DNA from: a virus
Taxonomy: Duplodnaviria > Heunggongvirae > Uroviricota > Caudoviricetes
Length of the DNA stretch: 64,000 nt
Virus record (IMG/VR): IMGVR_UViG_3300032050_000048
Coordinates: 8,476-72,475 of that record
Reading direction: 5' to 3' (one strand)
Part shown: positions 27,362 to 44,403 of the stretch, piece after piece
How positions within the stretch are numbered: position 1 is the first letter of the stretch
Layout of the letters: every line of letters begins with the position of its first letter
Program-made: the position numbers and the translations under genes
Notes under the pieces: generated by a model
Seen by the model: the letters and a program-made list of their open reading frames with translations, nothing else
Told to the model about the DNA's origin: nothing
Database searches by the model: none

Positions 27362-27435
27362 TGTCCTGTAGACGAATTGGCAGAGTCACCTCACTTTGAA
27401 CGAGGAGTATGGAGGTTCAACCCCTTCCGGGACAA
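27362..27435 (+). tRNA. tRNA-Gln (anticodon TTG)
   Basis: Cloverleaf read by hand. Acceptor tgtcctg/cgggaca (one G-U). Anticodon loop ctTTGaa. T arm ggagg-ttcaacc-ccttc. Confidence 0.65.
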
Positions 27436-27448
27436 CAATAATAAACAT

Positions 27449-27522
27449 AGGGTAGTTGGCTAATTGGCTAAGCCGCCTCGTTTGGGACGAGGAAGATGCA
27501 GGTTCAAGTCCTGTCTACCCTA
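27449..27522 (+). tRNA. tRNA-Pro (TGG)
   Basis: Acceptor agggtag/ctaccct. D stem ggct/agcc. Anticodon stem cctcg/cgagg, loop ttTGGga. T arm gcagg-ttcaagt-cctgt. Confidence 0.8.
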
Positions 27523-27539
27523 CTAAAAAACTATAAGTT

Positions 27540-27728
27540 ATGATAACAAACGAAGAATGTGAAAAAATTTCTATCAAAGGTAAGTTGAGTGGTTTAAATA
27601 ATTACTATATTAGCCTTGTTAAAATTAGTAAGGACCCATCATATCGTGGGGATTTAAGTGAAGAACTTAAAAGAGTGGAAACAGAAATAAAAATAAACAA
27701 TCAAAAACTAATGTCTTATGAAAAGTGA
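27540..27728 (+). CDS. Small hypothetical protein located between tRNA genes
   Basis: 62-aa ORF. Confidence 0.3.
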   Translation: MITNEECEKISIKGKLSGLNNYYISLVKISKDPSYRGDLSEELKRVETEIKINNQKLMSYEK

Positions 27729-27745
27729 CAAGTATGACAAACGAA

Positions 27746-27818
27746 ACCCCTCGTAGCTTAATCGGGAAAGCACCATACTTTTAATATGGGGAGAATCGGA
27801 TCGTAACCGGTCGGGGGG
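27746..27818 (+). tRNA. tRNA-Lys (TTT)
   Basis: Acceptor cccctcg/cgggggg (U-G). Anticodon stem ccata/tatgg, loop ctTTTaa. Unusual T loop atcgtaa. Confidence 0.7.
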
Positions 27819-27828
27819 ACAAAAAACA

Positions 27829-27902
27829 CACACTCTTAGCTCAGTTGGTAGTAGCGGTTGTTTTACATACAACAGGTCATAGGTTCAAGTCCTATAGGGT
27901 GT
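27829..27902 (+). tRNA. tRNA-Val (TAC)
   Basis: Acceptor acactct/agggtgt. Anticodon stem gttgt/acaac, loop ttTACat. T arm atagg-ttcaagt-cctat. Confidence 0.75.
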
Positions 27903-28036
27903 ACAATAGGTTGATTAGGGAAGTACATAACGTTAACGTGTCAGTAGTTCGTAGTTATGTGGGAGTTTTAACTGTCATAGTAAAGCTAATCGTAAAATCA
28001 GATGTCCACAGAACCATCTTCTGATTTCCTAAACTT

Positions 28037-28117
28037 GGGAGAGTTGAGCAATTGGTTGGCTCAGCAGACTGTAAATCTGTCGCGAAAGCCTTGGGGGTTC
28101 AAGTCCCTCCTCTCCCA
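28037..28117 (+). tRNA. tRNA-Tyr (GTA), bacterial type II with long variable arm
   Basis: Acceptor gggagag/ctctccc. D arm gagc-aattggttg-gctc. Anticodon loop ctGTAaa. 13-nt variable arm. Confidence 0.8.
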
Positions 28118-28126
28118 CAACAAAAT

Positions 28127-28199
28127 GGACAAGTAGCTCAATTGGTAGAGCAATCGGCTGTTAACCGATAGGTTGTAGGATCGTACCCTTCCTTGTCCG
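28127..28199 (+). tRNA. tRNA-Asn (GTT)
   Basis: Acceptor ggacaag/cttgtcc. D arm gctc-aattggta-gagc. Anticodon stem atcgg/ccgat, loop ctGTTaa. Confidence 0.8.
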
Positions 28200-28205
28200 C
28201 AATAA

Positions 28206-28278
28206 GTTCACGTAGCTCAATTGGTAGAGTGCCGATCTGATATGTCGGAGGTAATGGGATCGTAACCCGTCGTGAACA
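28206..28278 (+). tRNA. tRNA-Ile (GAT)
   Basis: Acceptor gttcacg/cgtgaac. Anticodon stem ccgat/gtcgg, loop ctGATat. T arm atggg-atcgtaa-cccgt. Confidence 0.75.
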
Positions 28279-28435
28279 CAAAAAGAGGAATAACTTGCGT
28301 AGGTGCCTCAAGGAACTGCAGTCCTACTACGCTCTATGGAAAGTAATCCCTGAAGGCGACGGGGCATGCCTGCTAAGCATTGCGATCGGTGAGAATCCGA
28401 TTGTGGATCGTTACCACTGCTTTCCTCAACATATG

Positions 28436-28508
28436 GTGTATGTAGCTCAATCGGTAGAGCGTTGGTTTGTGGAACCAAAGGTAATGGGATCGTAACCCAT
28501 CATACACA
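28436..28508 (+). tRNA. tRNA-His (GTG)
   Basis: Acceptor gtgtatg/catacac, with an extra G immediately 5' that could be the G-1. Anticodon stem ttggt/accaa, loop ttGTGga. Confidence 0.8.
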
Positions 28509-28703
28509 CAAATAGTTCACAACGGACAAGGCTTAGGCAAGTGAGTTGAGAATGAGTCGTAGGAGATATTACCAAAATGATTAAGTTCAATAAAGGAATC
28601 GTTTGGACTACAAAAAGTTTGATACAAGAGATTGGTGGGTGGCGAGTGGTTGACCAGAACTATTTAAATATCCGATGTCGGTCCCGAGCTAGGTCGGGCA
28701 TTT

Positions 28704-28774
28704 GCGTGGTACAGACAAGGTGTCGGGTAGGTCTCCAAAACCTCACTGGGTGGGTTCAATTCCTACACCACGCG
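28704..28774 (+). tRNA. tRNA-Trp-like (CCA) with degenerate D arm (possible pseudo-tRNA)
   Basis: Acceptor gcgtggt/accacgc, G73. Anticodon arm aggt-ctCCAaa-acct as in E. coli tRNA-Trp. T arm gtggg-ttcaatt-cctac. The D region does not fold canonically. Confidence 0.4.
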
Positions 28775-28820
28775 CTAAAAATAATTTTGGTGGTTAAAAA
28801 ACTTTTTGTATCTTTGAGAT

Positions 28821-29318
28821 ATGAAAAACAGACTACCATACGAAGCAACAGGAAAGGCAATCAAAGGGTATAGTGACTCTAAAATTGCAAAAGGTGAAAC
28901 AAACGATTGTGTTGTAAGAGCATTTGCGTCCTCATTTGAGGTTTCATATGACTATGCACACAAGTATGTCGCTGAAGAGTTTAATAGACAACCAAGAAGA
29001 GGGACATTTGGGACTCCATTAAAATTTGTTAAAATGTCCGATAACAGAGTTATGATAAACGGAAAAAAAGTTCATATTGTTGGTGAAAGAAAGAACGACT
29101 ATATGTTAAGATCTTTGGATTACCCCGTTAAGGTTAAAGGTGAAGTGGTTACAAGAAAAATGACTGTTGGTACCTTTGTTAAGAAAAATCCAAAGGGAAC
29201 TTTTTTTGTACTTGTTAAAGGTCACGCTTTTACAATTAAAGATGGTGTTGTTGTTGGAAACTTTGAGGATTCTCAAAAATTGAAAAGACCGATGCGTTGT
29301 GCATTTGAAATTAAATAA
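28821..29318 (+). CDS. Hypothetical protein
   Basis: 165-aa ORF inside the tRNA island. Confidence 0.5.
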   Translation: MKNRLPYEATGKAIKGYSDSKIAKGETNDCVVRAFASSFEVSYDYAHKYVAEEFNRQPRRGTFGTPLKFVKMSDNRVMINGKKVHIVGERKNDYMLRSLDYPVKVKGEVVTRKMTVGTFVKKNPKGTFFVLVKGHAFTIKDGVVVGNFEDSQKLKRPMRCAFEIK

Positions 29319-29320
29319 AA

Positions 29321-29396
29321 GGAACTATGGTGTAAGTGTGGTGTGTCACGTTGGACTGAAAATCCAAAGGTTGGGGTTCAACTCCCTATGGTTCCA
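29321..29396 (+). tRNA. tRNA-Phe (GAA) with an over-long D region
   Basis: Acceptor ggaacta/tggttcc. Anticodon stem ttgga/tccaa, loop ctGAAaa. T arm tgggg-ttcaact-cccta. The D region is 23 nt, GT-rich. Confidence 0.6.
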
Positions 29397-29419
29397 CAAA
29401 CAAATAAATTAAGGAAATT

Positions 29420-29875
29420 ATGAACAGAGTATTCAGAAAAGTAACCGGAGAATCTGTTCCTGACATTGTAAAACATACTGTTGATATATTAAAGGAATGT
29501 CCCTGGGTTGAGGTACACATTGGTACTGACTCTCAGAATCATAGAAGAAGTACTATATATGTTACAGCAATTGCTTATAGATTTGGGAATAGGGGGGTTC
29601 ATTATATCTATCACAAACAAAAGACAAAAAAGATTAAAGATAAATGGACCAGATTATGGAATGAGGCCGATTATTCAATTGAGGTTGCAGAGTGGTTAAC
29701 CACAAAAGTGAATGTAAAGGTGGAAATAGATTTAGATTACAACAGCGACTTAAAACACTTCAGCTCAAAATTAGTCCAACCGGCTGTTGGTTGGGCGACT
29801 TCACTGGGGTACAAGACAAACATTAAACCCCACAACCAAATTGCAACAAGGGCGGCAGACCACCACTGCCGCTAA
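29420..29875 (+). CDS. Hypothetical protein
   Basis: 151-aa ORF. Confidence 0.5.
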   Translation: MNRVFRKVTGESVPDIVKHTVDILKECPWVEVHIGTDSQNHRRSTIYVTAIAYRFGNRGVHYIYHKQKTKKIKDKWTRLWNEADYSIEVAEWLTTKVNVKVEIDLDYNSDLKHFSSKLVQPAVGWATSLGYKTNIKPHNQIATRAADHHCR

Positions 29876-29879
29876 TTAT

Positions 29880-29952
29880 GAGAGGTTGTCCGAGCGGCGT
29901 TAGGTCTGTGGTTGCAACCCACAGTACGGGGGTTCAAGTCCCTCACCTCTCT
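29880..29952 (+). tRNA. tRNA-Cys (GCA) with Ser-like D arm
   Basis: Acceptor gagaggt/acctctc. Anticodon stem tgtgg/ccaca, loop ttGCAac. T arm ggggg-ttcaagt-ccctc. Confidence 0.55.
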
Positions 29953-29961
29953 CAACAAAAT

Positions 29962-30035
29962 GCCCCTATGGCGGAATAGGTATACGCGTCAGATTTAGGA
30001 TCTGAATTTTGCAGGTTCAAGTCCTGCTAGGGGTA
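29962..30035 (+). tRNA. Type-I (short variable arm) tRNA with anticodon TAG (Leu codon CUA/CUG); identity uncertain
   Basis: Acceptor gccccta/taggggt, A73. D arm gcg-gaataggtata-cgc. Perfect anticodon stem tcaga/tctga with loop ttTAGga. 5-nt variable loop. T arm gcagg-ttcaagt-cctgc. Confidence 0.6.
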
Positions 30036-30403
30036 CAAAACTTTAAAAAAATAAACGATTATGAAAACGTATGACCAACATAAGATGAAAAGAACTCAGA
30101 TCAGGGAAGACCAGGTAAAAGCCGGATTCTTTGACGGTAGATTTGTTTCCCGGGTTGAGGAGTCAAAAAATACTTACACACGAAAGATTAAACATAAAAA
30201 ACAATTTTTTGTTTAATATTTACACTTTTTAAAAGTATTATATATTTATAACAAAAATAATAAAACTGCAAATGAAAAATTTACATATCATATCTTTGAG
30301 AGGGTTAGCAGAAGCTGAGGATTCTATCTATGTGAAGATGGTGTGATAAATTAATACATAAAATATTAGAAACCCATCTTCAAAAAAGATGGGTTTTTTG
30401 TTC

Positions 30404-30443
30404 TTTGACATATTGGAAATATAAAAAATTAAATATACCTTTG
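30404..30443 (+). promoter_or_regulatory. Promoter region: GTTCTTTGA motif and Bacteroidetes-type -7 element TAccTTTG, 5 nt upstream of ATG 30448
   Basis: TAccTTTG at 30436-30443 and TTTG/TTGG upstream; preceded by a terminator hairpin cccatcttcaaaaaagatggg at 30371-30399. Confidence 0.45.
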
Positions 30444-30447
30444 TTGT

Positions 30448-30741
30448 ATGGTAAAATTTAGTGATATAAAGTTTAAACCCCATAGCATGGGTGTTGGTCT
30501 TCAGGGTACTATTTTCTTTCCGGGAGGATATGGAATTTCTTGTGTTAGATTTAAATCTCCTTTTGGTGATAGATATATGTCTTATACAAGTAACGAAGAT
30601 GAGTGGGAAGTTGCAATCCTAAAAGGTGATGAAAACAACTGGGAACTTTGTTATGATACAATTTTAACAAATGATGTTTTGGGATACCAAACAAAAGAAG
30701 ATATTGAAAAAATTATGAGATATCTTATAAGATTACATTAA
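30448..30741 (+). CDS. Hypothetical protein
   Basis: 97-aa ORF. Confidence 0.45.
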   Translation: MVKFSDIKFKPHSMGVGLQGTIFFPGGYGISCVRFKSPFGDRYMSYTSNEDEWEVAILKGDENNWELCYDTILTNDVLGYQTKEDIEKIMRYLIRLH

Positions 30742-30745
30742 AAAG

Positions 30746-30777
30746 ATTTGGTAGATTAAAAAATTTGACATATCTTT
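30746..30777 (+). promoter_or_regulatory. Bacteroidetes-type promoter (TTTG, 20-nt spacer, TAtcTTTG)
   Basis: TTTG at 30746-30749, TAtcTTTG at 30770-30777. Followed by a gtaagacaaa leader and a GTTCTTTGA motif at 30844-30852. Confidence 0.5.
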
Positions 30778-30779
30778 GT

Positions 30780-31250
30780 AAGACAAACGATGGGGGTAGG
30801 AAGTTTAGAAATTGGTATCCTACCCCCAGATAAAGGGAAAAAAGTTCTTTGAAAACATTGTGATTTATTACACTAAAGCGAGGGGGAAAACTTTAGGTAG
30901 TATGTGTTGAACTAGCTTGCTCCGACTAGCACGGTCTAATCCGCCGTGAAGCATTTAATAATGGAGTAATGATGCTGATACATATAAATCACAACTTTTT
31001 AAAATATTGTGGTGGTAAGAAAAGGTGAACTCGTTAAGTTCATAGACCTGTTGACAAAAGATGGTGAAACGAGTGTGGTTGTCAACTACTGTATCACAGA
31101 TATAGCAGGCGGGAGGTAGAGGATCTCACCGGTCTCATAAGCCGGTTTAACTTGGTGCGATTCCAAGGCGTTGCTACAACAAAAAGGGTGGATAGGTGGG
31201 AGGGCCTTTCCTAAAAGACGGCACGCTAGGCCCGTGTTCACCCTTAAAAT
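30780..31250 (+). ncRNA. Candidate structured noncoding transcript A (about 470 nt between the promoter and tRNA-Asp; class unknown)
   Basis: No credible ORF. GC-enriched relative to the surrounding DNA. Hairpins such as gggggtagga...tcctaccccc. Ends at tRNA-Asp. Confidence 0.35.
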
Positions 31251-31322
31251 GGTCCATTGGTGTAGTGGCTAACATACATCCCTGTCACGGATGTGCTCCG
31301 GGTTCAATTCCCGGATGGACCG
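31251..31322 (+). tRNA. tRNA-Asp (GTC)
   Basis: Acceptor ggtccat/atggacc. Anticodon stem catcc/ggatg, loop ctGTCac. T arm ccggg-ttcaatt-cccgg. Confidence 0.8.
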
Positions 31323-31351
31323 CTAAACAATTAAAAACTAAACAAAATGAA

Positions 31352-31573
31352 ATGTTAAAGTTTAAACTGGGGTTGTGGGGTGTTGTAGGTACCACAATGA
31401 TTTACATCTACATAATGAATTTATTTTTCAGTTATGTAATCAACCGGGAGGTTGATGAAATCCTACAAATCGGTGCTAGTTTTATAGCTTTATTCTACAC
31501 CGTTTTTCAAATAAAGCTAATAGTAAAAGAAATAACAAATTTATTTAACAAAAAAGAAAAAGAAAATGATTAG
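31352..31573 (+). CDS. Small membrane protein
   Basis: The track ORF 31196..31573 overlaps tRNA-Asp, so an internal in-frame ATG at 31352 was chosen. MLKFKLGLWGVVGTTMIYIYIMNLFF is hydrophobic. Confidence 0.4.
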   Translation: MLKFKLGLWGVVGTTMIYIYIMNLFFSYVINREVDEILQIGASFIALFYTVFQIKLIVKEITNLFNKKEKEND

Positions 31574-32468
31574 TTTGATTGTAACATTAGTGTTTTTGAT
31601 TATCGCAGGGGTGATGATTGTAAAAGGTAAAATTAACGATGAGTCCTCAAGTATTCTAAAAGGAGTTGTTGTTGGTGTTGTGGGTGTATTGATTGGCGTA
31701 TTCCAACCATACTCACTTGAGAGAATTGACGCCGGTCACAAAGGTATTGTGGTTAACTTGTCCGGATCTGAAAGAGGGGTTGCTTCATATCAGTACAAAA
31801 CTGGGTGGGTTGTTTATAACACCTGGTTCACGCAAGTTCTTGAGTTCCCAACCTTTCAACAACATATTGAGTATGATGATCAGGTTGTAATTACAAAGGG
31901 TGGGTTCTCAGCAACTATTAAACCATCGTTTAACTACTCGTTGAAACCGGAAGCAATTGGTGATATGTTTGAAAACCTACGATTGGGTGTTAAAGAAATT
32001 GAACAAGGGTGGCTTAAAAACGCAATTGTTGGGGCGGTTAATGATGAAGCAAATAAATGGGAAGTTGATAGTATTTTTTCTAATCGTCAACAGTTTGAAG
32101 CGGCAATTGTTGTTGAGTGTAATAAACGATTAACAAAGTGGTTTGATGTGTCACAACTTAGAACAAACATTACACCACCGGAGGCGCTCCAGGAATCAAT
32201 TATTGCAAAAACAAAAGCTATCCAACAAGCTGAAGCCTCCGAGCAACAAGCAATTGCTGCAATTGCAGAAGGAAAACGTAAGGTGGCTGTCGCAAGAGCC
32301 GACTCGGCAGAAACAATTATCAACGCAAAAGCGGCATCACTTGCAATTGAGTTGAAACAACAAAAACTAACACCGATGTATATTGAGTATTTGAAGGCAA
32401 ATGCTTGGGATGGTAAACTTCCAACAACAATGGCAGGCAGTTCTGGAACGTTTTTGAATATTAAATAA
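31566..32468 (+). CDS. SPFH/band-7 (prohibitin/stomatin-like) family protein
   Basis: N-terminal TM helix, then GHKGIVVNLSGSERGV...; a coiled-coil AIQQAEASEQQAIAAIAEGKRKVAVARADSAE typical of the SPFH fold. Confidence 0.7.
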   Translation: MISLIVTLVFLIIAGVMIVKGKINDESSSILKGVVVGVVGVLIGVFQPYSLERIDAGHKGIVVNLSGSERGVASYQYKTGWVVYNTWFTQVLEFPTFQQHIEYDDQVVITKGGFSATIKPSFNYSLKPEAIGDMFENLRLGVKEIEQGWLKNAIVGAVNDEANKWEVDSIFSNRQQFEAAIVVECNKRLTKWFDVSQLRTNITPPEALQESIIAKTKAIQQAEASEQQAIAAIAEGKRKVAVARADSAETIINAKAASLAIELKQQKLTPMYIEYLKANAWDGKLPTTMAGSSGTFLNIK

Positions 32469-32473
32469 AAAGA

Positions 32474-32505
32474 TTTGGAGGATTGAAAAATTCTCCTTAT
32501 CTTTG
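32474..32505 (+). promoter_or_regulatory. Bacteroidetes-type promoter (TTTG, 20-nt spacer, TAtcTTTG)
   Basis: TTTG at 32474-32477, TAtcTTTG at 32498-32505. Followed by a gtaaaacaaa leader and GTTCTTTGA at 32526-32534. Confidence 0.5.
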
Positions 32506-32509
32506 TAAA

Positions 32510-32775
32510 ACAAATAAGGAAAGAAGTTCTTTGAAATAATAGATTGGTAAGATAGCAGATAGACCTACGTCAGCAGACTCTCATAGAGAATCAGAAATGA
32601 TGAGTAAAACGGAGCCCCTATCAGACTAACGTGTTGAGGAGGTACTCAAAGTTTTCCGGGAGGTTAACTGGTAATAAACGATGGTTTGGGTAGAACGGAT
32701 GTTAAAGGCGAGGTGTGGGTAGTAAGGATGGGGTAACCCACGAATAAGTAAATCTTAAGGTCTTACCATTTTTTA
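32510..32775 (+). ncRNA. Candidate noncoding RNA B (about 265 nt, promoter to terminator-like hairpin plus T-run)
   Basis: No ORF. Ends with gtaag...cttac followed by ATTTTTT around 32746-32775. Confidence 0.35.
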
Positions 32776-32928
32776 AAAATCTAAATCACGGGTGGCTCCC
32801 TTAATAGTTAAGGCTGACCTTAAGCATCTGACGCATGTCTATACAGGGGGCGAAAGTGATTTAAAATATTGTAATGAACAACGCGACCGCAGGAGTTGTA
32901 CCTTTATGGTTTTGTAATGTGGTTTTAT

Positions 32929-33003
32929 GTTCCGTTCGTCTAGCTGGTTTAGGACACTTCCCTTTCACGGAAGAGATCATGGGTTCAAATCCCATACGGA
33001 ATA
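32929..33003 (+). tRNA. tRNA-Glu (TTC)
   Basis: Acceptor gttccgt/acggaat. D arm gtc-tagctggtttag-gac. Anticodon stem cttcc/ggaag, loop ctTTCac. T arm atggg-ttcaaat-cccat. Confidence 0.8.
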
Positions 33004-33013
33004 CAAAAAATAT

Positions 33014-33087
33014 GGTCCCGTAGCTCAGCTGAATAGAGCAACGCCCTTCTAAGGCGAAGGTCACAGGTTTGAATCCTGTCGGGACTA
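33014..33087 (+). tRNA. tRNA-Arg (TCT)
   Basis: Acceptor ggtcccg/cgggact. D arm gctc-agctgaata-gagc. Anticodon loop ctTCTaa. T arm acagg-tttgaat-cctgt. Confidence 0.8.
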
Positions 33088-33233
33088 CAAAAAATTAAAA
33101 GTTATGAATTATACAATAGAAAAGAAATGTCATGCTTGGATAGGAATATGGTGGCAAGTTAAGGAAGATAAAGAGATAGTCTTTAAGAGCAAACGAAAAA
33201 AAGATTGTGTGTTCTACGTGAACAGTAAAAAAT

Positions 33234-33338
33234 AGTCAGGTGGCGGAATTGGTAGACGCACCTCAACACCCTGGGGTTGAGACATTAAATGAGGGTTAAC
33301 AATGGGTCTCTTATAGGTTCAAATCCTGTCCTGACTAC
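33234..33338 (+). tRNA. Atypical 105-nt type-II tRNA-like gene (Leu-type D arm; anticodon region expanded or unresolved)
   Basis: Acceptor agtcagg/cctgact. D arm gcggaattggtagacgc is identical to E. coli tRNA-Leu. T arm atagg-ttcaaat-cctgt. About 18 nt too long between the D and T arms; no clean 7-nt anticodon loop. Confidence 0.35.
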
Positions 33339-33601
33339 ACGTGGTAGGGTTCATCACCCCCTAGTGTGCCCCACATAATGAGAAACGGAGTGATATCCGT
33401 AGGGGAACGTACATTGTCGTATAGGGAGAACGACTGGGAAAGTAAGTTGTATTAGATACAGTGGAAACGCACATCTCAACAGAGGTGGACTGAAAGTTTG
33501 CCCGACCTGGGTTGAGGACGAAAGAAACTATTTCTAACCTACCTTTTTGGTGGGGACAACCGGAGCACCTGTAAGCTGAATAAATTAGGGTGTTAACAAA
33601 G
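33339..33601 (+). ncRNA. Candidate structured spacer RNA E between the two atypical type-II tRNA-like genes
   Basis: About 260 nt, GC-enriched, no ORF. Confidence 0.25.
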
Positions 33602-33690
33602 GCAAGTGGCGAAATCGGCAGACGCTAAGGTAGATCTAACTAAGATTGTACCGAGACAATGTAAAAGTTGTCGTATAGGTTCAAATCCTT
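33602..33690 (+). tRNA. Atypical type-II tRNA-like gene (Leu/Ser-type D arm gcgaaatcggcagacgc; anticodon unresolved)
   Basis: Acceptor aggcaag/cttgtct (G3-U70). T arm atagg-ttcaaat-ccttt. A hairpin gacaa...ttgtc in the variable region. No canonical anticodon arm found. Confidence 0.3.
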
Positions 33691-33879
33691 TCTTGTCTAC
33701 AAATACAATTAAAAGATGAATATGTTATTGTTTGTATCATTTGTTTTGTTTATACTTTTAATAGGTAGAAAAAAAAGAAAATATTAACTTCAGTACCCAT
33801 ACAGCGGTGAGACGGGCTAAGTAAGATACGATTCCTCGGGGCTGGGAGTAGAATGCTGAAGAAATATTTTCTAAAATAT

Positions 33880-33959
33880 GCTCCGATGGTGAAATTGGTA
33901 TACACGATGCGTTTAAGCCGCATTCCTACGGGGTGAGGGTTCAAATCCCTCTCGGAGTA
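33880..33959 (+). tRNA. tRNA-Leu (TAA), type II
   Basis: Acceptor gctccga/tcggagt. Anticodon stem atgcg/cgcat, loop ttTAAgc. 11-nt variable arm. T arm gaggg-ttcaaat-ccctc. Confidence 0.75.
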
Positions 33960-34062
33960 CTGTTGTGTTATTCCCTTGAGAAAGGAATTACGGTGGGATA
34001 TGGTCTTGATTTGGATTTAACCTAGTATGAATCACAACACAGAGGACTTCTCATCCTCAACC

Positions 34063-34136
34063 GGACCTTTAACTCAGTTGGTCAGAGTGCTTGACTCATA
34101 ATCAAGGAGTCGTAGGTTCAAACCCTACAAGGTCCA
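34063..34136 (+). tRNA. tRNA-Met (CAT); could instead be an fMet or Ile2 (lysidine) type
   Basis: Acceptor ggacctt/aaggtcc. D arm actc-agttggtca-gagt. Anticodon stem cttga/tcaag, loop ctCATaa. T arm gtagg-ttcaaac-cctac. Confidence 0.75.
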
Positions 34137-34151
34137 CACCGCTTAAGATGC

Positions 34152-35951: not shown

Positions 35952-36773
35952 ATGAAAAAAATACTTACAGAGTCTGAAGTTAAAAACATTAAAAATATGT
36001 ACTCAATTAATGAGTCATTACTTTCTGATGTTGTTGACAAAATAAAAGATTTACCGGATTTTGAAAATATCAAAAAAAAATTTAAGGAAGTTACAGGAAT
36101 TGATCTTGAATCAAAGGTCAATATTGGTGGCAAATCATCTAACACCAATTATAAAGGAAAAGTTGACTTTAGTCGTGGAGGGTTTAGTAGTGAACAAAAG
36201 GAAAATATTGAATACCTTTTATCTGAAATGGAGAAAAAGGGGATTAAGGACCCTTACACTCAAATAGGGATTTTATCTGTAATTATGAAAGAAACTAACT
36301 TCATTCAAAAAAGTGAAGTTGACTATTCAGATACCGCAAACTCAAGAATACGAAACACATTCGGTAAAAGAGTACGAAAATATTCCGATGAACAACTAAA
36401 TAAATTAAAAGCAAACCCAAAGAGATTTTTTAATGTTGTTTATGCAAATATAATTGGAAATGGTGATGTAGAAAGTGGTGATGGATATAAGTATCGTGGG
36501 AGAGGGTTTAATCAGTTAACAGGGAAGGGTAACTATAGAAAATATGGTTCACTTGCCGGTATTGATTTGGTAAGTAATCCAGATAAATTAAATGATAGAG
36601 AAGTTGCGGTAAAAGTTGCGTTACAATTTTTAACAAAAGGAAAAACAGATTTTCCTAAATTTGATAGTAAAAAAGAAGCAGCAGAATATTTTGCTGATAT
36701 AAATGCTGGTGGTGGTACAAGTACTCACAGATCAAATGCGGTTAAAGCGTCTGAAAATTTTGATATTAAATAA
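35952..36773 (+). CDS. Glycoside hydrolase family 19-like endolysin (peptidoglycan hydrolase) with leader-family N-terminus (MKKILTESEVKNIKNMY)
   Basis: YRGRGFNQLTGKGNYRKYGSLAGIDLVSNPDKL matches the GH19 catalytic core pattern (YKGRGxIQLTGxxNY). Confidence 0.65.
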   Translation: MKKILTESEVKNIKNMYSINESLLSDVVDKIKDLPDFENIKKKFKEVTGIDLESKVNIGGKSSNTNYKGKVDFSRGGFSSEQKENIEYLLSEMEKKGIKDPYTQIGILSVIMKETNFIQKSEVDYSDTANSRIRNTFGKRVRKYSDEQLNKLKANPKRFFNVVYANIIGNGDVESGDGYKYRGRGFNQLTGKGNYRKYGSLAGIDLVSNPDKLNDREVAVKVALQFLTKGKTDFPKFDSKKEAAEYFADINAGGGTSTHRSNAVKASENFDIK

Positions 36774-36776
36774 AGT

Positions 36777-37388
36777 ATGGAGAATTTATCTGGAATAATT
36801 ATTGCTTTTATAACTGGAGTCTTGGGACCGATTTCAATCCTACTTATTAAAAACTATTTTGATAAGAAAAAAAAGAAACCGGATATGGTTAGAGAAACAC
36901 TTAAAGTTTCTGAACTTGTAAATCAAAAAATAGAACATATTAAAGAAGAGTTTAATGCTGATCGTGTTTGGGTTACTCAATTTCATAATGGAGGCAACTT
37001 TTACCCAACTGGAAAATCAATGGCAAAATTCTCAATAATATATGAAGCTGTAAACCCTGGAATATCCTCAGTGCAGTCAAACTTTCATAATATACCAGTT
37101 AATCTATTTTCAAAATCAATCAATGAATTACTTGTAAATGACGTTATTGAAATTACAGATTATAAAGATGAAACAATTGCAACTTTCGGTCTTAAGTATA
37201 TTGCCGAAGACACTGGCTGTAAATCTGGTTATTTATTTGCAATTAAAACAATTGATGAAAAATTTATTGGTACATTAGGTCTTGATTACACAAAAAAGAA
37301 AACAAAACTTAATATTGAATCAATAAATCATCTTCAGGTTCACGCATCATCTTTGGGTGGTGTTTTAATGAACCATTTAAATCAATAA
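36777..37388 (+). CDS. N-terminally membrane-anchored protein in the lysis cassette
   Basis: TM helix LSGIIIAFITGVLGPISILLI followed by a KKKKKP stop-transfer. Confidence 0.5.
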   Translation: MENLSGIIIAFITGVLGPISILLIKNYFDKKKKKPDMVRETLKVSELVNQKIEHIKEEFNADRVWVTQFHNGGNFYPTGKSMAKFSIIYEAVNPGISSVQSNFHNIPVNLFSKSINELLVNDVIEITDYKDETIATFGLKYIAEDTGCKSGYLFAIKTIDEKFIGTLGLDYTKKKTKLNIESINHLQVHASSLGGVLMNHLNQ

Positions 37389-37418
37389 TTTTTACAATCT
37401 TAGTATATTTATTGTAGT

Positions 37419-38102
37419 ATGAATTTAGTCTATCCATTAGAAAAAAAAGGAGTTAAAACATCTGGATTTGGGAATAGAAAGCACCCGGTTAAAGGTAGCA
37501 CTATTCACCATAATGGTATTGATATTGGTATTCCAGACGGAACAAGTGTTATATCAGTCGCTAACGGTGAGGTTGTTAGATCAGATATGAAAGACAAAAA
37601 TGGGTATGGAAATTTTATTATTGTAAAACATAATGTTGATGGTGAAACCTTTTTTTCTTGTTATGCACATTTAACAAAAAGACTTGTTGATGTTGGTGAT
37701 AAGGTTAAAAAAGGAGAGAAAATTGCCGAATCCGGTGGAGGTCAGGGTATTTCTGGTGGTGGGGGTATGTCAACAGGACCACATTTACATTTTGAGATAA
37801 GAAAATCAGTTACTGGTGGTTGGGTAAATCCAGAACCATACATTAATGGAGCACCAATCACAAAAGGTTTTGGTGGTAAGGAAAATAAAAAAGATTTGAG
37901 TGATGATGGTTTAGCGGCAACACTAATGAGTATCGCTAATGATTATGTCCTTAAACCAGTTGGGGATTTGTTGGACAAATCAGAAACAATCAAGTTATTC
38001 AAAAAAATGGCTGCCGATGTTGAGAAGGAATACGAAGCATCCGATAAGGGAATGTGGGAACAAAATGAGAGATTAAAAAAAATTATTAAAAAAATTCTCT
38101 AA
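37419..38102 (+). CDS. M23 family peptidase (lysostaphin-like endopeptidase)
   Basis: HNGIDIGIPDGTSV...GNFIIVKHNVDGETFFSCYAHL...GPHLHFEIRK carries the HxxxD and HxH M23 signatures. Confidence 0.8.
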   Translation: MNLVYPLEKKGVKTSGFGNRKHPVKGSTIHHNGIDIGIPDGTSVISVANGEVVRSDMKDKNGYGNFIIVKHNVDGETFFSCYAHLTKRLVDVGDKVKKGEKIAESGGGQGISGGGGMSTGPHLHFEIRKSVTGGWVNPEPYINGAPITKGFGGKENKKDLSDDGLAATLMSIANDYVLKPVGDLLDKSETIKLFKKMAADVEKEYEASDKGMWEQNERLKKIIKKIL

Positions 38103-38404: not shown

Positions 38405-39372
38405 AAACAAATTCGGAAACGTCCGAAATCGTTCTTTGAAAAATTAGAATATCCATTCAGAATGTTTGATGATGAAATCCTTGCGGTTGATTCTGAGTAA
38501 CAAACTGATAAAGATATTTGGCCGTATATAGTCAATAAATAAACTGGGAAACCAGGATAAAGTGGGTCAGTAGTGTAACTGATCTGCGGTTTGGGTAACC
38601 GAACTTAAGTATACAAGCGGGATACCGTTTAACCTTTAGTACCGAGGGCAACGCTGTAGGGAAAGTGGTTAGATGATTGGGCGATGTGGGTCGTCCGGTT
38701 GAGGTGGGAACACCAATAGGAATAACTCGTAGGGATATTGCAAAAAATAAGATTATCCAATTTTATTATTGCGTGTCCCAATATCAGAGGATACTTAAAA
38801 CCGAAAGGTATGATAACAAACAGGTGGTGCTGACATTATCCTTGACCCTTGCCTACCAAGGCATAAGTCACGAAGTAATCTTAAAATATTGAGATGGGGA
38901 CATTTCAGAGAGTAGTTGAGTATCGGCTCGTTCAAAAGATGAGCTGGCTCTGGTGGCGGACCACTACTTTCATAATCCACGACACAAAAACCTAAGAAAA
39001 AATTATGAAATTAATTTAATCAGAAAGGAAAAGTGTCCGTCAGGTTTGGATGAAAGGTGACTACATAGTAATGAGCCGTTCATTGCACACAAGGATCCCA
39101 AGTCTAAGTGTAATTATCCGAAAAACCTTTAGTCCCGCAAGGACGAACTGGGGAGGCATCCTCGGAAAGAGTCAAGTAAGGTGAGAGTAGTCCAAATCTC
39201 AAGGAGTGGTTCCCCTAAGTGACCGTCACTGAGAAATACTTCTCAAAAGGAAGTGGATAGGAGTAGAATAAATAATGACTCTAAAGGTTCTCAATAAAAC
39301 GTGTAATCTCAACGTTCTTTTTAGGTTTAATCTTATAAGACAAAAAAAATTAGTAGGGACAGGAAACTGATC
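38405..39372 (+). ncRNA. Candidate large (about 0.95 kb) structured noncoding RNA, promoter to terminator (GOLLD/ROOL-like?)
   Basis: No ORF over 71 aa, and the reading frames are broken. GC-enriched. Ends with the aggga...tccct hairpin plus TTTTTTT at 39345-39372. Sits beside the tmRNA and the tRNA island. Confidence 0.35.
39345..39372 (+). terminator. Rho-independent terminator of the large candidate ncRNA
   Basis: Hairpin aggga-caggaaactga-tccct followed by TTTTTTT. Confidence 0.55.
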
Positions 39373-39439: not shown

Positions 39440-39467
39440 AACCCCATCGTATGATGAGGTTATTAAT
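39440..39467 (-). terminator. Rho-independent terminator of tmRNA (minus strand)
   Basis: Minus-strand hairpin cctcatc-atac-gatgggg followed by TTTTTTT, directly after the CCA end. Confidence 0.65.
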
Positions 39468-39858
39468 TGGTGGAGATGCGGGGCTCCGACTCCCCGGTCC
39501 AGCTCGTCTTGTTTAAAAGACCACTACATGCTTAGGTTGGTATTTTCTAATACCCCAAAATAGTTGATTTGTTCTTTTCCATCGTAAATCAACAACCAAT
39601 GGTTTCTAATCCGGATTTAGAGAGCCGACCAGGTTGCTCTATAAAACTACGACTTCTGTTGCTAGGCTATATGTCTGCCGGCCCCCGGTTTTTGTTGCGA
39701 TTACGCTACAGCAACCTCAGAAGTGCGGATTAACCCAACAGCTTCCATTTTGTTTAGCACATTGCCATTTAAAAAGTGAATCAGTTTTTAACGAGATTAA
39801 TTCAGTCCCGACATGCTCCTTTTATTCAACCAACGCCTGTCAAATCCAATACATCCCC
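39468..39858 (-). ncRNA. ssrA: tmRNA (transfer-messenger RNA, SsrA), one-piece, CCA-encoded
   Basis: Minus-strand 5' end GGGGATGTATTGGATTTGACAGG matches the E. coli tmRNA 5' end GGGGCUGAUUCUGGAUUCGACGGG. The 3' end CTAAGCATGTAGT...GGACCGGGGAGTCGGAGCCCCGCATCTCCACCA matches the conserved 3' end. Acceptor ggggatg/catctcc has G3-U70. Internal tag frame ...TSEVAVA-TAA. Confidence 0.85.
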
Positions 39859-39924
39859 GTATATTGTAAATGACTATTATCAAAGAACTATATATAAATA
39901 CAAATATAAACATATTTATACTAT

Positions 39925-40959
39925 ATGCCAACAAATACATACGAATTTTTAAAACAAATTGCAAAAGGTGAGGACTCAGGGTATAATAGATGGAATTACC
40001 CGGATGACTTAATCCACGATATTCGTATTAACGAAAAAAACCCATTGGCATCACAAATTACTTTAGATTTTGATAAGGACAGTGACTTCCTAGAGATATT
40101 AGGTGTTGATGAAAATGACGCCTGGACATATAACTATATAATGTATGGCGACTCTAGTGACTGGGATTGGTATACCTATAGAGATGAATGGAAAGAAGGA
40201 TACATTTTAGATGGTTTTAACAATGAGAATAAAGAAAAATTTGAAAAAATTGTAAGACTATCACTTTCACCAAAAACTTCAGTAAGAAGTGATATTTTAA
40301 ATGGAATACTTGGGATTTATGAAGATCAAGTAGAAAATATCATTTCGGCATATGCAAATGAAAATGAAAGATGTCAAATTGATGGGGCTAAAGAAATTAT
40401 AAGACGAGAAACAGAAAAACCATTTGATAGATTTGGAATTATTGAAGTATGGCACGGATCCAGATTTAAAACAACAGTTGGTATTTTACTTAATTGGTAT
40501 AGAATGTTAAAAATGGAAGATGATGATATTAAACATCTTCTTAAATCTTTATTTGAAAAATATAACCCAAAAAGTGATATTGGTGGTTGGGAAGAGATTA
40601 GATATAACTCATTTTGTGATGACTATGATTCAGAAGGAGTCCAAATGGAGATTAGTCACGAACTTGACAAAATAATTGAGATAATTGAAGAAGAAGGGGT
40701 TCACGACGAGTTTCAAAAAATATATGATGTTGTTGTAAAACTTGGAGGGTTCAATAAAATGCTTGATTTAAAAGAAAAGGAAATATCTGTTATATTTGAT
40801 AGTATTGATCCACATACCGGACAACTAGTTTTTAAATTATATAAAAAAGGTGGTAAGATGGAAAAAAGAAGTGTTGACAATCTTGAGGATCTTTATTTAA
40901 ATTTATACCACCCAGAATTATTTGAAAGTGTTAAAGATATTTTAAATAGAATTTTGTAG
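39925..40959 (+). CDS. Hypothetical protein
   Basis: 344-aa ORF. Confidence 0.5.
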   Translation: MPTNTYEFLKQIAKGEDSGYNRWNYPDDLIHDIRINEKNPLASQITLDFDKDSDFLEILGVDENDAWTYNYIMYGDSSDWDWYTYRDEWKEGYILDGFNNENKEKFEKIVRLSLSPKTSVRSDILNGILGIYEDQVENIISAYANENERCQIDGAKEIIRRETEKPFDRFGIIEVWHGSRFKTTVGILLNWYRMLKMEDDDIKHLLKSLFEKYNPKSDIGGWEEIRYNSFCDDYDSEGVQMEISHELDKIIEIIEEEGVHDEFQKIYDVVVKLGGFNKMLDLKEKEISVIFDSIDPHTGQLVFKLYKKGGKMEKRSVDNLEDLYLNLYHPELFESVKDILNRIL

Positions 40960-40987
40960 TATCAAATAAGTTTATTATATTTGGGCT

Positions 40988-41773
40988 ATGGAAAGAAATT
41001 TTGAATTACTAAAAAAGGTCCTTTCGGTTCCGACTAAGACCTACCAGGAAGATTTAATGATTGAGTTTATTGTTGACTGGCTTGAGTCAAAGAATATTCC
41101 ATTTTATCTGGACCAATACTATAATGTATATGCTACAAAACAAACAGATACCAATATTGAGTATTTTCCTTGTGTTGTAGCCCACACAGACACTGTTCAC
41201 AATATTGATACAATAAATGTCGTTGAGGAGATGCTTCCAAACGCACAGAAAGAGATAAAACTAGCACTTAAAGCTTATAACGATAAAGGAGAACCAACCG
41301 GTATTGGTGGTGATGATAAATGTGGCGTATTTGCCTGTCTTGAACTTCTTGAGGAAATGCCAAACCTAAAAGCTGCGTTCTTTGTTGCTGAAGAAACTGG
41401 ATGTAAAGGGTCATTTAACTCAGATTCGGCTTTCTTTGAAAACGTGGGTTATGTTATTCAGTTTGATGCACCAGAAAATAATATGATTTCTGAGTTTCTT
41501 ATGAGTGCGCCAATGTTTACCCGGGATAGTGATTTCTTTAAGGTTGGTGGAAGGTTGATTACAGAACATTTCCCAAAGGACACAAAATACCATAGACATC
41601 CATATACGGATATTTATCCTTTAAATCAAAGATATAAGATATCTTGTTTTAATATCTCAATTGGTTATTACAACTACCACACAAGAAATGAGTACGTTGT
41701 TATTGATGATACATACAACGGAATAAAGGTAGGTAAGTTAATGATTGAGGAACTTGGTTATACCAAACATTAA
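40988..41773 (+). CDS. MH-clan zinc peptidase (M20/M28/M42-like aminopeptidase/hydrolase)
   Basis: VAHTDTVH, GGDDKCGVFACLELLEE and AEETGCKGS give the His/Asp metal ligands, the GxDDKxG motif and the Glu-Glu pair. Confidence 0.6.
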   Translation: MERNFELLKKVLSVPTKTYQEDLMIEFIVDWLESKNIPFYLDQYYNVYATKQTDTNIEYFPCVVAHTDTVHNIDTINVVEEMLPNAQKEIKLALKAYNDKGEPTGIGGDDKCGVFACLELLEEMPNLKAAFFVAEETGCKGSFNSDSAFFENVGYVIQFDAPENNMISEFLMSAPMFTRDSDFFKVGGRLITEHFPKDTKYHRHPYTDIYPLNQRYKISCFNISIGYYNYHTRNEYVVIDDTYNGIKVGKLMIEELGYTKH

Positions 41774-41776
41774 AAA

Positions 41777-41799
41777 AGGAGGGTTTTTAACCCTCCTTT
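41777..41799. terminator. Bidirectional terminator between convergent peptidase and Clp ATPase genes
   Basis: Hairpin aaggagggtttttaaccctcctt. Confidence 0.6.
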
Positions 41800-43832
41800 T
41801 TCTTTCTACCCCTTTTAGGTTTATTCTCAATAAGAACATCAATCTTAATTTCCTTATCTACAACTGTCAATTTATAATCAACATCTTCTAGAACTTCATT
41901 TAGTAATATTTTCTCAGAGATAAGGTCTTCAATTTTATCCTGGATTGCCCTTTTAATTGGTCTTGCACCAAATTGTTCATCAAACCCAACCTCAGATATC
42001 AATTCAACAACTGACTCATCGTATGTAATTTTATATTTCATTGACTCAATTCTGTTAACTAACTTCTCAATTTCAATTTTAACAATCCGGTCAACGTGCT
42101 CTTTTTTAAGCGAGTTAAAGACAATAACGTCATCAATTCTATTTAGGAATTCTGGAGCGAAGAACTTACTTAATTCTTTTTTGAGGATATCTCTTTTTTC
42201 TTCTTCTCTTACTGCTTCACTACTATTTGATTTAAACCCAACTCCAGTTCCAAAATCCTGTAATTTTCTAACACCAATATTTGATGTCATAATAATTAAA
42301 CAATTTTTGAAGTTAATTTTTCTTCCAAGTCCGTCGGTCATATGCCCGTCATCAAGCATTTGAAGAAGTGTTGAGAAGATATCTTTATTTGCCTTTTCAA
42401 TCTCATCAAATAAGATAACAGAGTATGGTTTATTTTTAACCTGTTCTGTAAGCTGTCCACCCTCTTCGTGACCAACATATCCTGGAGGAGAACCGATAAG
42501 CCTTGATATAGTATGTTTTTCCTGATATTCAGACATATCAACACGAATCAAACTATCTTCACTACCAAAAATTTCTTTTGCTAGTTTCTTTGCAAGATAT
42601 GTTTTACCAACACCGGTTGACCCAAGGAAGATAAATGAACCAATTGGTCTATTTGGGTCCTTAATTCCAATTCTATTTCTTCTAATGGATTTTGATATTT
42701 TTGTTACCGCTTCAGCCTGACCAATTACATAGCTATTTAGTGCGTTCTCTAAATTAACAAGAGAGTTTTTCTCGTCAACATTAATTTTGCTTACCGGGAT
42801 TTTAGTCATTTTAGAAACAACCTCATAAATTAAATCTTCCGGAATTACTCTTTTACTATTTCTAAGTTCTTCCTCAAATTTTAATCTTTCGGCATCAAGT
42901 GATGACATTACTGATTTTTCCCGGTCCCTTAACTCAGCAGCCATTTCGTATTTCTGTTTTTTTATAACGTCAGACTTCTCCTTTTTAATTTCAAGAAGTT
43001 CTTGTTTTAGATTTTCAATACTTTCAGGAAGTTTAATATCAATTTGCATTCTTGACCCAACCTCATCAATAATATCAAAAGCTTTATCCGGAAACTCACG
43101 ATCTGTAATATATCTATCGGCAAGTTCTACACATAAAAGAAGTGATTCGTCTGAATATGTTACCTTGTGATGTTCTTCATACTTTTCTTTACTATTTTTT
43201 AAAATTTGAAAAGTTTCAGCCTTTGTTGATGGTTCTACAATTACTTTCTGGAATCTTCTCTCAAGAGCTCCATCCTTCTCAAAATGCTTTCTATATTCAT
43301 CAAGGGTTGTAGCACCAATACATTGGATTTCACCCCTAGAAAGGGCCGGTTTAAAGATGTTTGAGGCATCAAGTGAACCAGAACTATTACCAGCACCAAC
43401 CATTGTATGAATCTCATCAATAAAAAGAATAATGTTTGGATTACTTTGAAGTTCCTCAATTATTACTTTCATTCTTTCCTCAAATTGTCCACGATATTTT
43501 GTACCGGCAACAATTGAATTCATCTCAAGGGAAACAATTCTTTTCTCTGAAAGATTTTTAGGACATTCACCACTATGAATCATCATTGCCAACCCTTCTA
43601 CAATTGCTGTTTTACCACAACCTGGTTCACCGATAATAATAGGGTTGTTTTTCTTTCTTCTAGATAAAATTTGTGCAATTCTAATAATTTCATCTTCTCT
43701 ACCTATTACAGGGTCTAATTTACCTTCTTGAGCTAACTTATTTAAGTCTTTACTAAAGTTGTCTAGAACCGGAGTTCCACTATCACTTTTTTTCTTGTTC
43801 TTGTCGTTGTCATCAATGAATTCTATTGCCAT
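41787..43832 (-). CDS. ClpC/ClpA-like class I AAA+ unfoldase (two ATPase domains, UVR-type middle domain, VGF ClpP-docking loop; no Clp_N domain)
   Basis: Walker A motifs [15 protein letters not shown] and [15 protein letters not shown]. Middle domain [21 protein letters not shown] tripeptide loop. N-terminus begins about 50 residues before the first Walker A. Confidence 0.85.
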
Positions 43833-43991
43833 AATGTTTTTTATTTAAATTTAGTAATTTTTATTTTTTTAGTAAAGTATTGACACAATGTCATAATGTC
43901 TTGTGTTATATGACAAAATGTCAGGTTTATAAATTTTGGTATCCTTTTAGTATAAATATTAACCAAAATAAACCAAATAAAAAAATAAAAA

Positions 43992-44375
43992 ATGGATAGA
44001 TTTAATTTTAACAAATTTAACAGATTATTTGACGACTTTTTTTCTAGAAATGAGTCCTTTAACTTTGATCAGTTTTTAACTGGTGATAATAACCTTGAGA
44101 AAAGGGTTTACACAAACGAAGATGGGTCAGTAAACGTTGTCTACATTAAAAATGGAAAAAATAGAAATGAGATTGATGAATTAAAACAAAAACTTGATAT
44201 GGTAATTGAGAATCAAGAGTTTGAACTTGCGGTTGAGTTAAGGGATAAGATTAAAAATCTTGAACAAAACCAAGAAGAAATTAAAAAGTTAAACGACGAG
44301 TTAAAAAGTCACATTCAAAACCAAGACTTTGAAAAGTGTATTGAACTCCGAGACAAAATAAAATCGTTAAAATAA
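43992..44375 (+). CDS. Stand-alone protein with two UVR motifs (FELAVELRDKIKNLE; FEKCIELRDKIKSL)
   Basis: 127 aa; the motifs match the UvrB/ClpC UVR helix-hairpin signature. Terminator at 44381-44403. Confidence 0.5.
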   Translation: MDRFNFNKFNRLFDDFFSRNESFNFDQFLTGDNNLEKRVYTNEDGSVNVVYIKNGKNRNEIDELKQKLDMVIENQEFELAVELRDKIKNLEQNQEEIKKLNDELKSHIQNQDFEKCIELRDKIKSLK

Positions 44376-44380
44376 TAAGG

Positions 44381-44403
44381 ACCTCTTCGGAGGTTTTTTT
44401 TTA
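44381..44403 (+). terminator. Rho-independent terminator
   Basis: Hairpin acctc-ttcg-gaggt followed by a T-run. Confidence 0.6.

Follow-up and report, generated by a model that had tools for sequence, protein, structure and literature searches.

An N-domain-less ClpC-type unfoldase in a jumbo-phage lineage and its conserved neighbors, among them a long-tag tmRNA and a minimal exopeptidase

We analyzed a 64,000-nucleotide stretch of a Caudoviricetes genome (IMG/VR record IMGVR_UViG_3300032050_000048, positions 8,476 to 72,475; the window below), in which a first-pass annotation had singled out a cluster made up of a transfer-messenger RNA (tmRNA), a Zn peptidase, a ClpC-like unfoldase and a small UVR-motif protein. 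Alignments and motif counts show that the unfoldase has kept both ATPase modules, its pore loops, the UVR-type middle domain (M-domain) and the ClpP-docking loop intact, and that the two Clp_N repeats have been precisely removed. In the phage clade to which the window belongs, the peptidase, the tmRNA, a 344-residue protein (g344) and a KTSC-domain protein are in strict synteny with the ClpC gene. The explanation that we favor, at a probability of about 0.42, is that the lineage retains an independently transcribed quality-control block, in which a ClpP-coupled ClpC without N-domain (N-less), a UVR modulator, the tmRNA and the exopeptidase share one theme. That the four elements function as one coupled machine is a hypothesis.

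The ClpC-type unfoldase and its control region

41787 to 43832, minus strand: ClpC-type double-AAA+ unfoldase without Clp_N, 681 amino acids (Pfam, PDB alignment)
43881 to 43893 and 43911 to 43923: two palindromes of the form TGACA-N3-TGTCA, TGACACAATGTCA and TGACAAAATGTCA respectively, in the divergent intergenic region between the ClpC and UVR genes; candidate operator

Pfam recognizes AAA, AAA_lid_9, AAA_2 and ClpB_D2-small domains in the unfoldase. We checked whether ClpB, rather than ClpC as annotated, was its best match in the PDB. It was not: the ClpCs of S. aureus (724 bits, in a single stretch that places query residues 10 to 667 on ClpC residues 149 to 806) and B. subtilis (704 bits) scored highest, M. 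tuberculosis ClpC1 reached 671 bits, and ClpB aligned at 645 bits in two stretches, split by its longer M-domain. By these alignments the unfoldase is of the ClpC type and not of the ClpB type, in keeping with the label "ClpC" that these proteins already carry at JGI. It also matches phrog_4871, "ATP-dependent protease," with 796 bits.

Clp_N (PF02861) matched neither the unfoldase nor any of the 120 homologues listed, and no open reading frame upstream of the gene supplies an N-domain. The protein starts at about the position of ClpC residue 140 to 149, which bears out the annotated loss of the Clp_N repeats. Similarly, the match to phrog_4871 begins at position 161 of the 764 in that profile, whose N-terminal region is thus missing in the window ClpC.

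At least 597 IMG/VR stretches carry relatives of the ATPase. We took the best 80, which are 68 to 87% identical to it, on contigs whose length reaches 321 kb; the window clade that they define consists of freshwater jumbo-phage contigs, and all neighbor counts were corrected for contig ends. These 80 proteins measure 664 to 719 amino acids, as against 844 to 853 for cellular Bacteroidota ClpCs with two Clp_N repeats, and every start in the clade falls in the linker just before TPVLDNF. The N-less length is kept in more than 120 viral loci. The Walker A and B motifs, both pore loops (KYRG and GYVG), the M-domain motif and the ClpP loop are preserved in 78 to 80 of the 80 relatives. The M-domain motif is present in 80/80, so the UVR-type middle domain of the first-pass annotation stands, as does its VGF ClpP-docking loop: GTGVGFKS aligns to the P-loop of S. 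aureus and Bacteroidota ClpCs. The G[VILM]GF form of this loop occurs in all 80 proteins of the window clade and in 46/46 other N-less viral ClpCs. That 126/126 N-less viral proteins retain it speaks for selection to keep ClpP docking.

The phage enzyme therefore has in common with bacterial ClpCs (those of B. subtilis and S. aureus, M. tuberculosis ClpC1 and those of Bacteroidota) the two AAA+ modules, the pore loops, the short UVR-type M-domain and the [VI]GF loop. It differs from them in lacking their N-domain of about 145 residues (two Clp_N repeats) and in having a palindromic upstream element and a phage-specific KTSC neighbor. A basic C-terminal tail, considered as a further hallmark of phage ClpC, was dropped, as it is variable and also found in some cellular ClpCs.

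A third viral clade retains a divergent N-domain on its ClpC. In a rough neighbor-joining tree without support values, the window clade falls beside viral ClpCs with an N-domain, and a second N-less clade, that of the huge-phage locus L001, lies nearer to cellular ClpCs. This topology suggests at least two independent losses of the N-domain, one each in the window clade and the L001-like clade.

The protein-homologue listing for ClpC was filled by close metagenomic relatives, and the cellular relatives came from a scan of genome contigs instead. The closest of these are Bacteroidota ClpCs (Aquimarina, Pedobacter, Sphingobacterium and Mucilaginibacter) at 56 to 59% identity, for which reason the host or gene donor of the window lineage is probably a member of the Bacteroidota. 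The best deposited matches are in 635- to 642-kb "uncultured phage" genomes, at about 59% identity. A megablast of the region against deposited phages returned zero matches; the window is met again on contigs from freshwater metagenomes, with lengths of up to 85 to 170 kb. Contamination by cellular DNA was rejected, since the context consists of phage genes and the GTDB relatives are all at most 59% identical. That context comprises a lysis cassette with holin, GH19 and M23 genes, tail-fiber genes with Laminin_G_3 domains and a tRNA island, and a long structural and tail-fiber block adjoins the ClpC gene.

The two palindromes upstream of ClpC are the only copies in the window, where 0.09 would be expected. 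Among the relatives, 54 exact copies lie within about 110 bp upstream of ClpC, in 43 of 80 loci, and a single copy occurs in the remaining 1.33 Mb; with one mismatch allowed, 57/80 loci have a site, and the density is 5.2 per kb compared with 0.029 per kb. Some cellular Bacteroidota genes of the clpC/clpB type also show an enrichment of similar sites upstream (8/34 loci, 1.34 compared with 0.022 per kb). That the palindrome ahead of ClpC is conserved speaks for specific regulation, and its distribution points to a dedicated, possibly host-borrowed, control of the phage ClpC.

The tmRNA and the other neighbors of ClpC

39468 to 39858, minus strand: tmRNA (ssrA), Rfam RF00023
39766 to 39701, minus strand: tag frame, with resume codon GGC at 39766-39764, 21 codons ending at 39704 and stop codon TAA at 39703-39701 (tmRNA homologue alignment)
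39440 to 39461, minus strand: terminator-like hairpin, a 9-bp stem followed by a T-run, directly 3′ of the tmRNA
39925 to 40959, plus strand: g344, conserved 344-amino-acid protein, between tmRNA and peptidase in 60/61 relatives
40988 to 41773, plus strand: minimal MH-clan (M20/M42-like) di-zinc exopeptidase, 261 amino acids (Pfam, Foldseek)
41772 to 41802, both strands: bidirectional terminator-like hairpin, a 14-bp stem between the convergent peptidase and ClpC genes
43992 to 44375, plus strand: stand-alone double-UVR protein, 127 amino acids (Pfam UVR)
44377 to 44398, plus strand: terminator-like hairpin after the UVR gene
46879 to 47124, plus strand: KTSC-domain protein, 81 amino acids (Pfam KTSC, 60.2 bits)

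The annotated tmRNA was confirmed by Rfam, with a score of 86.7 bits against a gathering threshold of 47 and a match to the full model, positions 1 to 374. Its acceptor stem pairs 5′ GGGGAUG with 3′ CAUCUCC and contains a G3.U pair; the CCA is encoded, and the 3′ end reads CAUCUCCACCA. The PK1 pseudoknot region has a high posterior probability in the RF00023 alignment, and the PK2-PK4 region aligns poorly. ARAGORN reported 17 tRNAs and zero tmRNA in the window, at the default as well as at a relaxed threshold.

The tag was read from an alignment of 41 full-length tmRNA homologues. One frame is open for 21 to 22 codons and then closed by TAA, TAG or TGA in 40/41 of them, the two alternative frames being closed (3/41 open). 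Variability at the first, second and third codon positions of the tag is 6.4, 4.3 and 8.7, respectively, thus highest at the third, a pattern of substitution as in coding sequence. In the window, this frame encodes the 21 residues GNVLNKMEAVGLIRTSEVAVA, and the AVA ending given by the first-pass annotation proves right. The family follows the pattern G-N-[VT]-[LF]-x-K-[ML]-x-x-x-G-L-[ILVT]-[RKA]-x-x-[EA]-x-x-[V/x]-A, most commonly ending in TVA, VVA, AVA or VAA. The usual tags of Bacteroidota have about 10 residues, and variants of the E. coli tag with a C-terminal …VA are still degrons. Precomputed Pfam matches and tblastn revealed no SmpB in the window; the partner of the tmRNA could be the host SmpB or the product of a gene elsewhere in the phage genome.

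A tmRNA homologue lies near ClpC in 42/42 relatives with enough flanking sequence, and six divergent members were confirmed by Rfam. Deposited phages gave zero blastn matches to the tmRNA. Like the tmRNAs of Bacillus phage G, the cluster C mycobacteriophages and the huge phages of Al-Shayeb et al. (2020), that of the window is in one piece and is encoded in a large phage near tRNA genes; unlike these, it has a conserved tag of 21 to 22 residues that contains G-L-[ILV]-R internally and ends in V-A or A-A. ARAGORN, which misses it, was the tool used in the huge-phage survey. Since this standard tool overlooks a conserved long-tag tmRNA, phage tmRNA surveys are incomplete.

The peptidase assignment of the first-pass annotation, M20/M28/M42-like with the motifs GGDDKCG and EETG, was upheld by a strong fold match and by the location of both motifs in invariant columns. 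Its profile scores are modest: Peptidase_M20 in Pfam gives 25.8 bits, narrowly over the cut-off of 24.6, M42 and M28 stay under theirs, NCBIfam models are far under their cut-offs, and phrog_4191, "peptidase," reaches 119.8 bits. An alignment of 29 homologues shows H66, D68, D109, E135, E136, D160 and H231 without variation, and by analogy these residues may be assigned as metal ligands and catalytic Glu. In its AlphaFold2 model (predicted local distance difference test [pLDDT] 90), the protein appears as a catalytic domain only, without the lid/dimerization insert. The top Foldseek matches of this model are PepT, TET/M42 aminopeptidases and an isolated DapE catalytic domain (probability 1.0, template-modeling score [TM] up to 0.76 on the query); alignments with PepT span about 380 columns, with TM values of 0.75 (query) and 0.54 (target). 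The phage protein would thus have the fold and the metal and catalytic residue set of PepT, TET (M42) and DapE catalytic domains. It differs from these enzymes, which have 330 to 410 amino acids, in its length of 261 without the lid/dimerization domain, its identity to them is 11 to 22%, and, unlike them, it belongs to a phage-wide family, phrog_4191. For g344, no family match and no structural neighbor were found despite a confident AlphaFold2 model (pLDDT 87).

The small protein encoded divergently from ClpC scores 47.9 bits with Pfam UVR, in two stretches. It had been annotated as little more than two UVR motifs; the two motifs are present, but so is a conserved N-terminal region of about 55 residues, and the family layout consists of an F-rich segment at the N terminus, then a short beta region and the two UVR motifs. 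An exhaustive HMMER search collected 203 cluster representatives, nearly all of 60 to 190 amino acids. The profile of the family also matches the M-domain of all 82 ClpCs, with 43 to 63 bits. An identity with McsA was rejected: NF053706 gives 47 bits against a cut-off of 210, on the C-terminal UVR part only, and the protein has one Cys and no CxxC. McsA in Firmicutes and CLPF, EXE and UVR1-4 in plastids are likewise small UvrB/C-motif proteins associated, genetically or physically, with a ClpC that bears the UVR motif in its M-domain, and in plastids, proteins with UVR domains figure prominently among the interactors or adaptors of CLPC1 (PMC8889267). The phage protein differs from this group by the absence of zinc fingers and of a YccV or DUF151 domain, Pfam finding UVR only, and by its two tandem UVR motifs and its family-specific N terminus.

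KTSC is the most consistent upstream neighbor of the phage ClpC, with 73/73 loci in the window clade, and lies directly divergent from the full-length ClpC in 31 loci of the third viral clade as well, against 0/80 cellular ClpC loci. The KTSC domain has been predicted by the Aravind lab to bind DNA. As a regulator acting on the palindrome it is unsupported, since no palindrome is common to the KTSC-ClpC intergenic regions in the clade with full-length ClpC.

Upstream of the tmRNA lie three further features.

38520 to 39315, plus strand: GOLLD RNA, Rfam RF02032; conserved 3′ half at 38908-39315, 5′ boundary approximate
27159 to 34137, plus strand: tRNA island, 17 tRNA genes (ARAGORN) and interspersed small open reading frames, about 4.4 kb upstream of GOLLD
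35952 to 38102, plus strand: lysis cassette, with a holin (PF23987), a GH19 endolysin, a conserved 203-amino-acid protein and an M23 peptidase, directly upstream of GOLLD

The GOLLD RNA matches the full Rfam model with 319.1 bits against a gathering threshold of 150, and its 3′ end converges with that of the tmRNA at a distance of about 150 bp. An 800-nucleotide query (38520-39320) gave full-length matches at 30 loci of the clade and in L001 and L002, two distant huge phages. GOLLD lies near ClpC in 20/36 window-clade loci, and Rfam detected none in the six divergent tmRNA-bearing members. In eight loci of the L001-like N-less clade, and in L001 and L002 themselves, it is found 2 to 4 kb upstream of ClpC. 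The arrangement in the window agrees with what is known of GOLLD, which associates with tRNA islands; the literature ties GOLLD expression to lysis, ribosome binding has been reported for the GOLLD nanocage RNA, and tmRNA and Clp go unmentioned in the cryo-electron microscopy paper on this RNA. The first-pass annotation of the interval was right about its four elements and had left unmentioned the GOLLD RNA that abuts the tmRNA, g344, the KTSC gene and the palindrome.

One block or inherited neighbors

In the window clade, the neighbors of ClpC are the peptidase in 74/74 relatives, g344 in 60/61, the tmRNA in 42/42 and KTSC in 73/73. The gene order is GOLLD, tmRNA, g344, peptidase, ClpC and KTSC, with the UVR gene between ClpC and KTSC in about 40% of the members. 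As regards the clustered module proposed in the first-pass annotation, strict colocation of tmRNA and peptidase with ClpC was found within the clade; it was not found in the second N-less clade, and the UVR protein is present in a minority of the relatives.

The quality-control block that we favor, located beside the tRNA island and the lysis cassette, would hold auxiliary genes that serve translation and the quality control of proteins. Hexamers of the phage ClpC would dock on ClpP, possibly that of the host, and feed degradation without the inputs that come through the N-domain (ClpS- or MecA/McsB-type adaptors and N-domain-bound signals), control being left to the M-domain. The enzyme may be controlled transcriptionally via the palindrome and posttranslationally via the M-domain. 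The repeats of the double-UVR protein resemble the M-domain motif, and the protein would most simply be an optional modulator, in contact with the M-domain through UVR-UVR pairing. The tmRNA would rescue stalled ribosomes in the course of infection and add a phage-specific degron of 22 residues (Ala plus the 21 encoded, with a V-A or A-A end), and the exopeptidase would trim the resulting peptides to amino acids. The weakest step is the reading of the phage tag by the phage ClpC, which is speculative. There is a precedent for an enzyme of this architecture in M. tuberculosis, whose ClpC1 without its N-domain still unfolds an SsrA-tagged substrate and is regulated via the M-domain (PMC6274998).

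Several observations weigh against such a block. The elements are separate transcription units of mixed orientation, each with its own terminator, as predicted from the hairpins. Gene order is shared generally in the clade, including the neighbors g203a and g52, which have no proteostasis link; strict synteny that is confined to one clade with such sharing can be explained by descent alone. The peptidase family is widespread in deposited phages, among them 43-kb Klebsiella and Vibrio podophages and Cellulophaga phages, and in LR756504 the peptidase gene is 270 kb away from the ClpC gene. A profile search found the UVR protein in 30/79 relatives, always adjacent and divergent to ClpC, and not in the other 49; it therefore cannot be an obligatory part of the machine. 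At 80 loci around relatives of the L001 ClpC, N-less ClpCs occur without tmRNA, UVR protein or small peptidase nearby. No ClpP was detected in the window by precomputed Pfam matches or tblastn, and a ClpP bait from the huge phage LR745206.1 retrieved 23 contigs, none of the window clade, in a search that reaches close relatives only.

The same huge phage bears on the question in two ways. LR745206.1, a complete genome of 635 kb from the second N-less clade (our segments L249-L261), encodes an N-less ClpC together with GOLLD and about 60 tRNAs; it also has two ClpPs (45% and 37% identical to E. coli ClpP), a ClpS-like protein and SmpB, at about 75.2-75.8, 123.6-124.1, 180.5 and 333 kb. Its Clp and trans-translation genes are scattered over hundreds of kilobases, and no tmRNA was found in it by Rfam, ARAGORN or the window-clade profile, a further point against the block; it is thus a phage with an SmpB and without a detectable cognate tmRNA of its own. 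Together with the other loci of its clade, LR745206.1 indicates that a phage tmRNA is not a general requirement of the N-less ClpC, and that this ClpC co-occurs with phage ClpP. Inside the tRNA island of this genome, at about 344.0 kb (L256, 1031-1115), Rfam reports a tRNA-Sec with 47.4 bits, barely over the gathering threshold of 47. A Pth2-like gene beside ClpC in L001 (8863-9468) was dropped, as Pfam gave no match.

These observations sustain, as a real possibility, the explanation that there is no module: the tmRNA, peptidase, ClpC, UVR and KTSC genes would be unrelated auxiliary genes in inherited order, each working with host partners, in a "miscellaneous" region flanked on one side by the tRNA island and lysis cassette and on the other by the structural genes. 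The separate units and terminators, the equally syntenic g203a and g52, the peptidases of small phages, the dispensable UVR protein, the N-less clade that lacks these neighbors and the dispersed genes of LR745206.1 are all as it would have them. It accounts less well for the 100% retention of four elements across a divergence of ClpC down to 68% identity, while intervening genes come and go, and for the adjacency of KTSC and ClpC, which reaches a second viral clade. In addition, the thematic coherence of a tagging RNA, an unfoldase with a ClpP loop and an exopeptidase seems unlikely to have arisen by chance, a judgment that is qualitative.

It is unlikely that the N-less ClpC acts mainly as a ClpP-independent chaperone or remodeler, for assembly of a large virion or for disaggregation, with a ClpP loop that was inherited and has little consequence. 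Assembly or translocase roles have been suggested for jumbo-phage ClpA and ClpX (Iyer et al., PMC7824862), the gene adjoins the long structural and tail-fiber block, and the window lacks a detected ClpP; however, the docking loop is retained in every N-less viral protein, the M-domain is of the short ClpC type and not of the long, DnaK-coupling ClpB type, and the related LR745206.1 encodes its two ClpPs.

A more ambitious form of the block, an orthogonal tag-and-destroy system, appears improbable. In it, the K-M-x-x-x-G-L-[ILV]-R segment and V-A end of the tag would be read specifically by the N-less ClpC, possibly with help from KTSC or the UVR protein, ClpP would be fed, the exopeptidase would yield amino acids for phage translation, and GOLLD might join a ribosome-centered takeover.

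Finally, the double-UVR protein could target the host ClpC as an M-domain mimic that unlocks or blocks its resting state, the phage ClpC serving as a substitute. Its repeats are very similar to the M-domain motif of phage and Bacteroidota ClpCs, and the ATPase has its best structural matches in 6em8 and 6em9, two entries for S. aureus ClpC; these are resting-state assemblies built on head-to-head M-domain contacts. A precedent is SPO1 Gp53, reported to modulate host ClpCP (PMC6873191). We consider this target improbable nonetheless, given that the protein occurs in only 38% of the relatives and that its gene always stands divergently beside the phage ClpC, sharing with it the palindrome-bearing intergenic region, which suggests a link to the phage enzyme.

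Relation to known systems and significance

Phage Clp components and phage tmRNAs are already known. In particular, Iyer et al. (2021, PMC7824862) reported ClpP, ClpS, ClpA and ClpX in jumbo phages, and huge phages have been described with tmRNA and SmpB, so that the "previously undescribed system" of the first-pass annotation was overstated. The window ClpC resembles these jumbo-phage components in being a phage-encoded Clp-family ATPase, of a kind thought to redirect proteolysis or to assist assembly; an N-domain-less ClpC lineage goes unmentioned by Iyer et al. In the literature that we searched, there was no description of the N-domain-less architecture as a conserved phage lineage, of the long conserved tag, of the ClpC palindrome, of the KTSC association or of the adjacency of GOLLD and tmRNA.

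The proximity of GOLLD to the tmRNA and to ClpC provides a new contextual clue for an RNA of unknown function. If the parts of the locus cooperate, this would be the first virus with both a tagging RNA and a matching unfoldase, that is, with a private channel for protein degradation. Even if they are not coupled, they reveal a large and apparently undescribed family of N-domain-less ClpCs (more than 120 loci and at least 597 viral stretches), in which the N-domain was probably lost more than once and which constitutes a natural experiment on the purpose of that domain.

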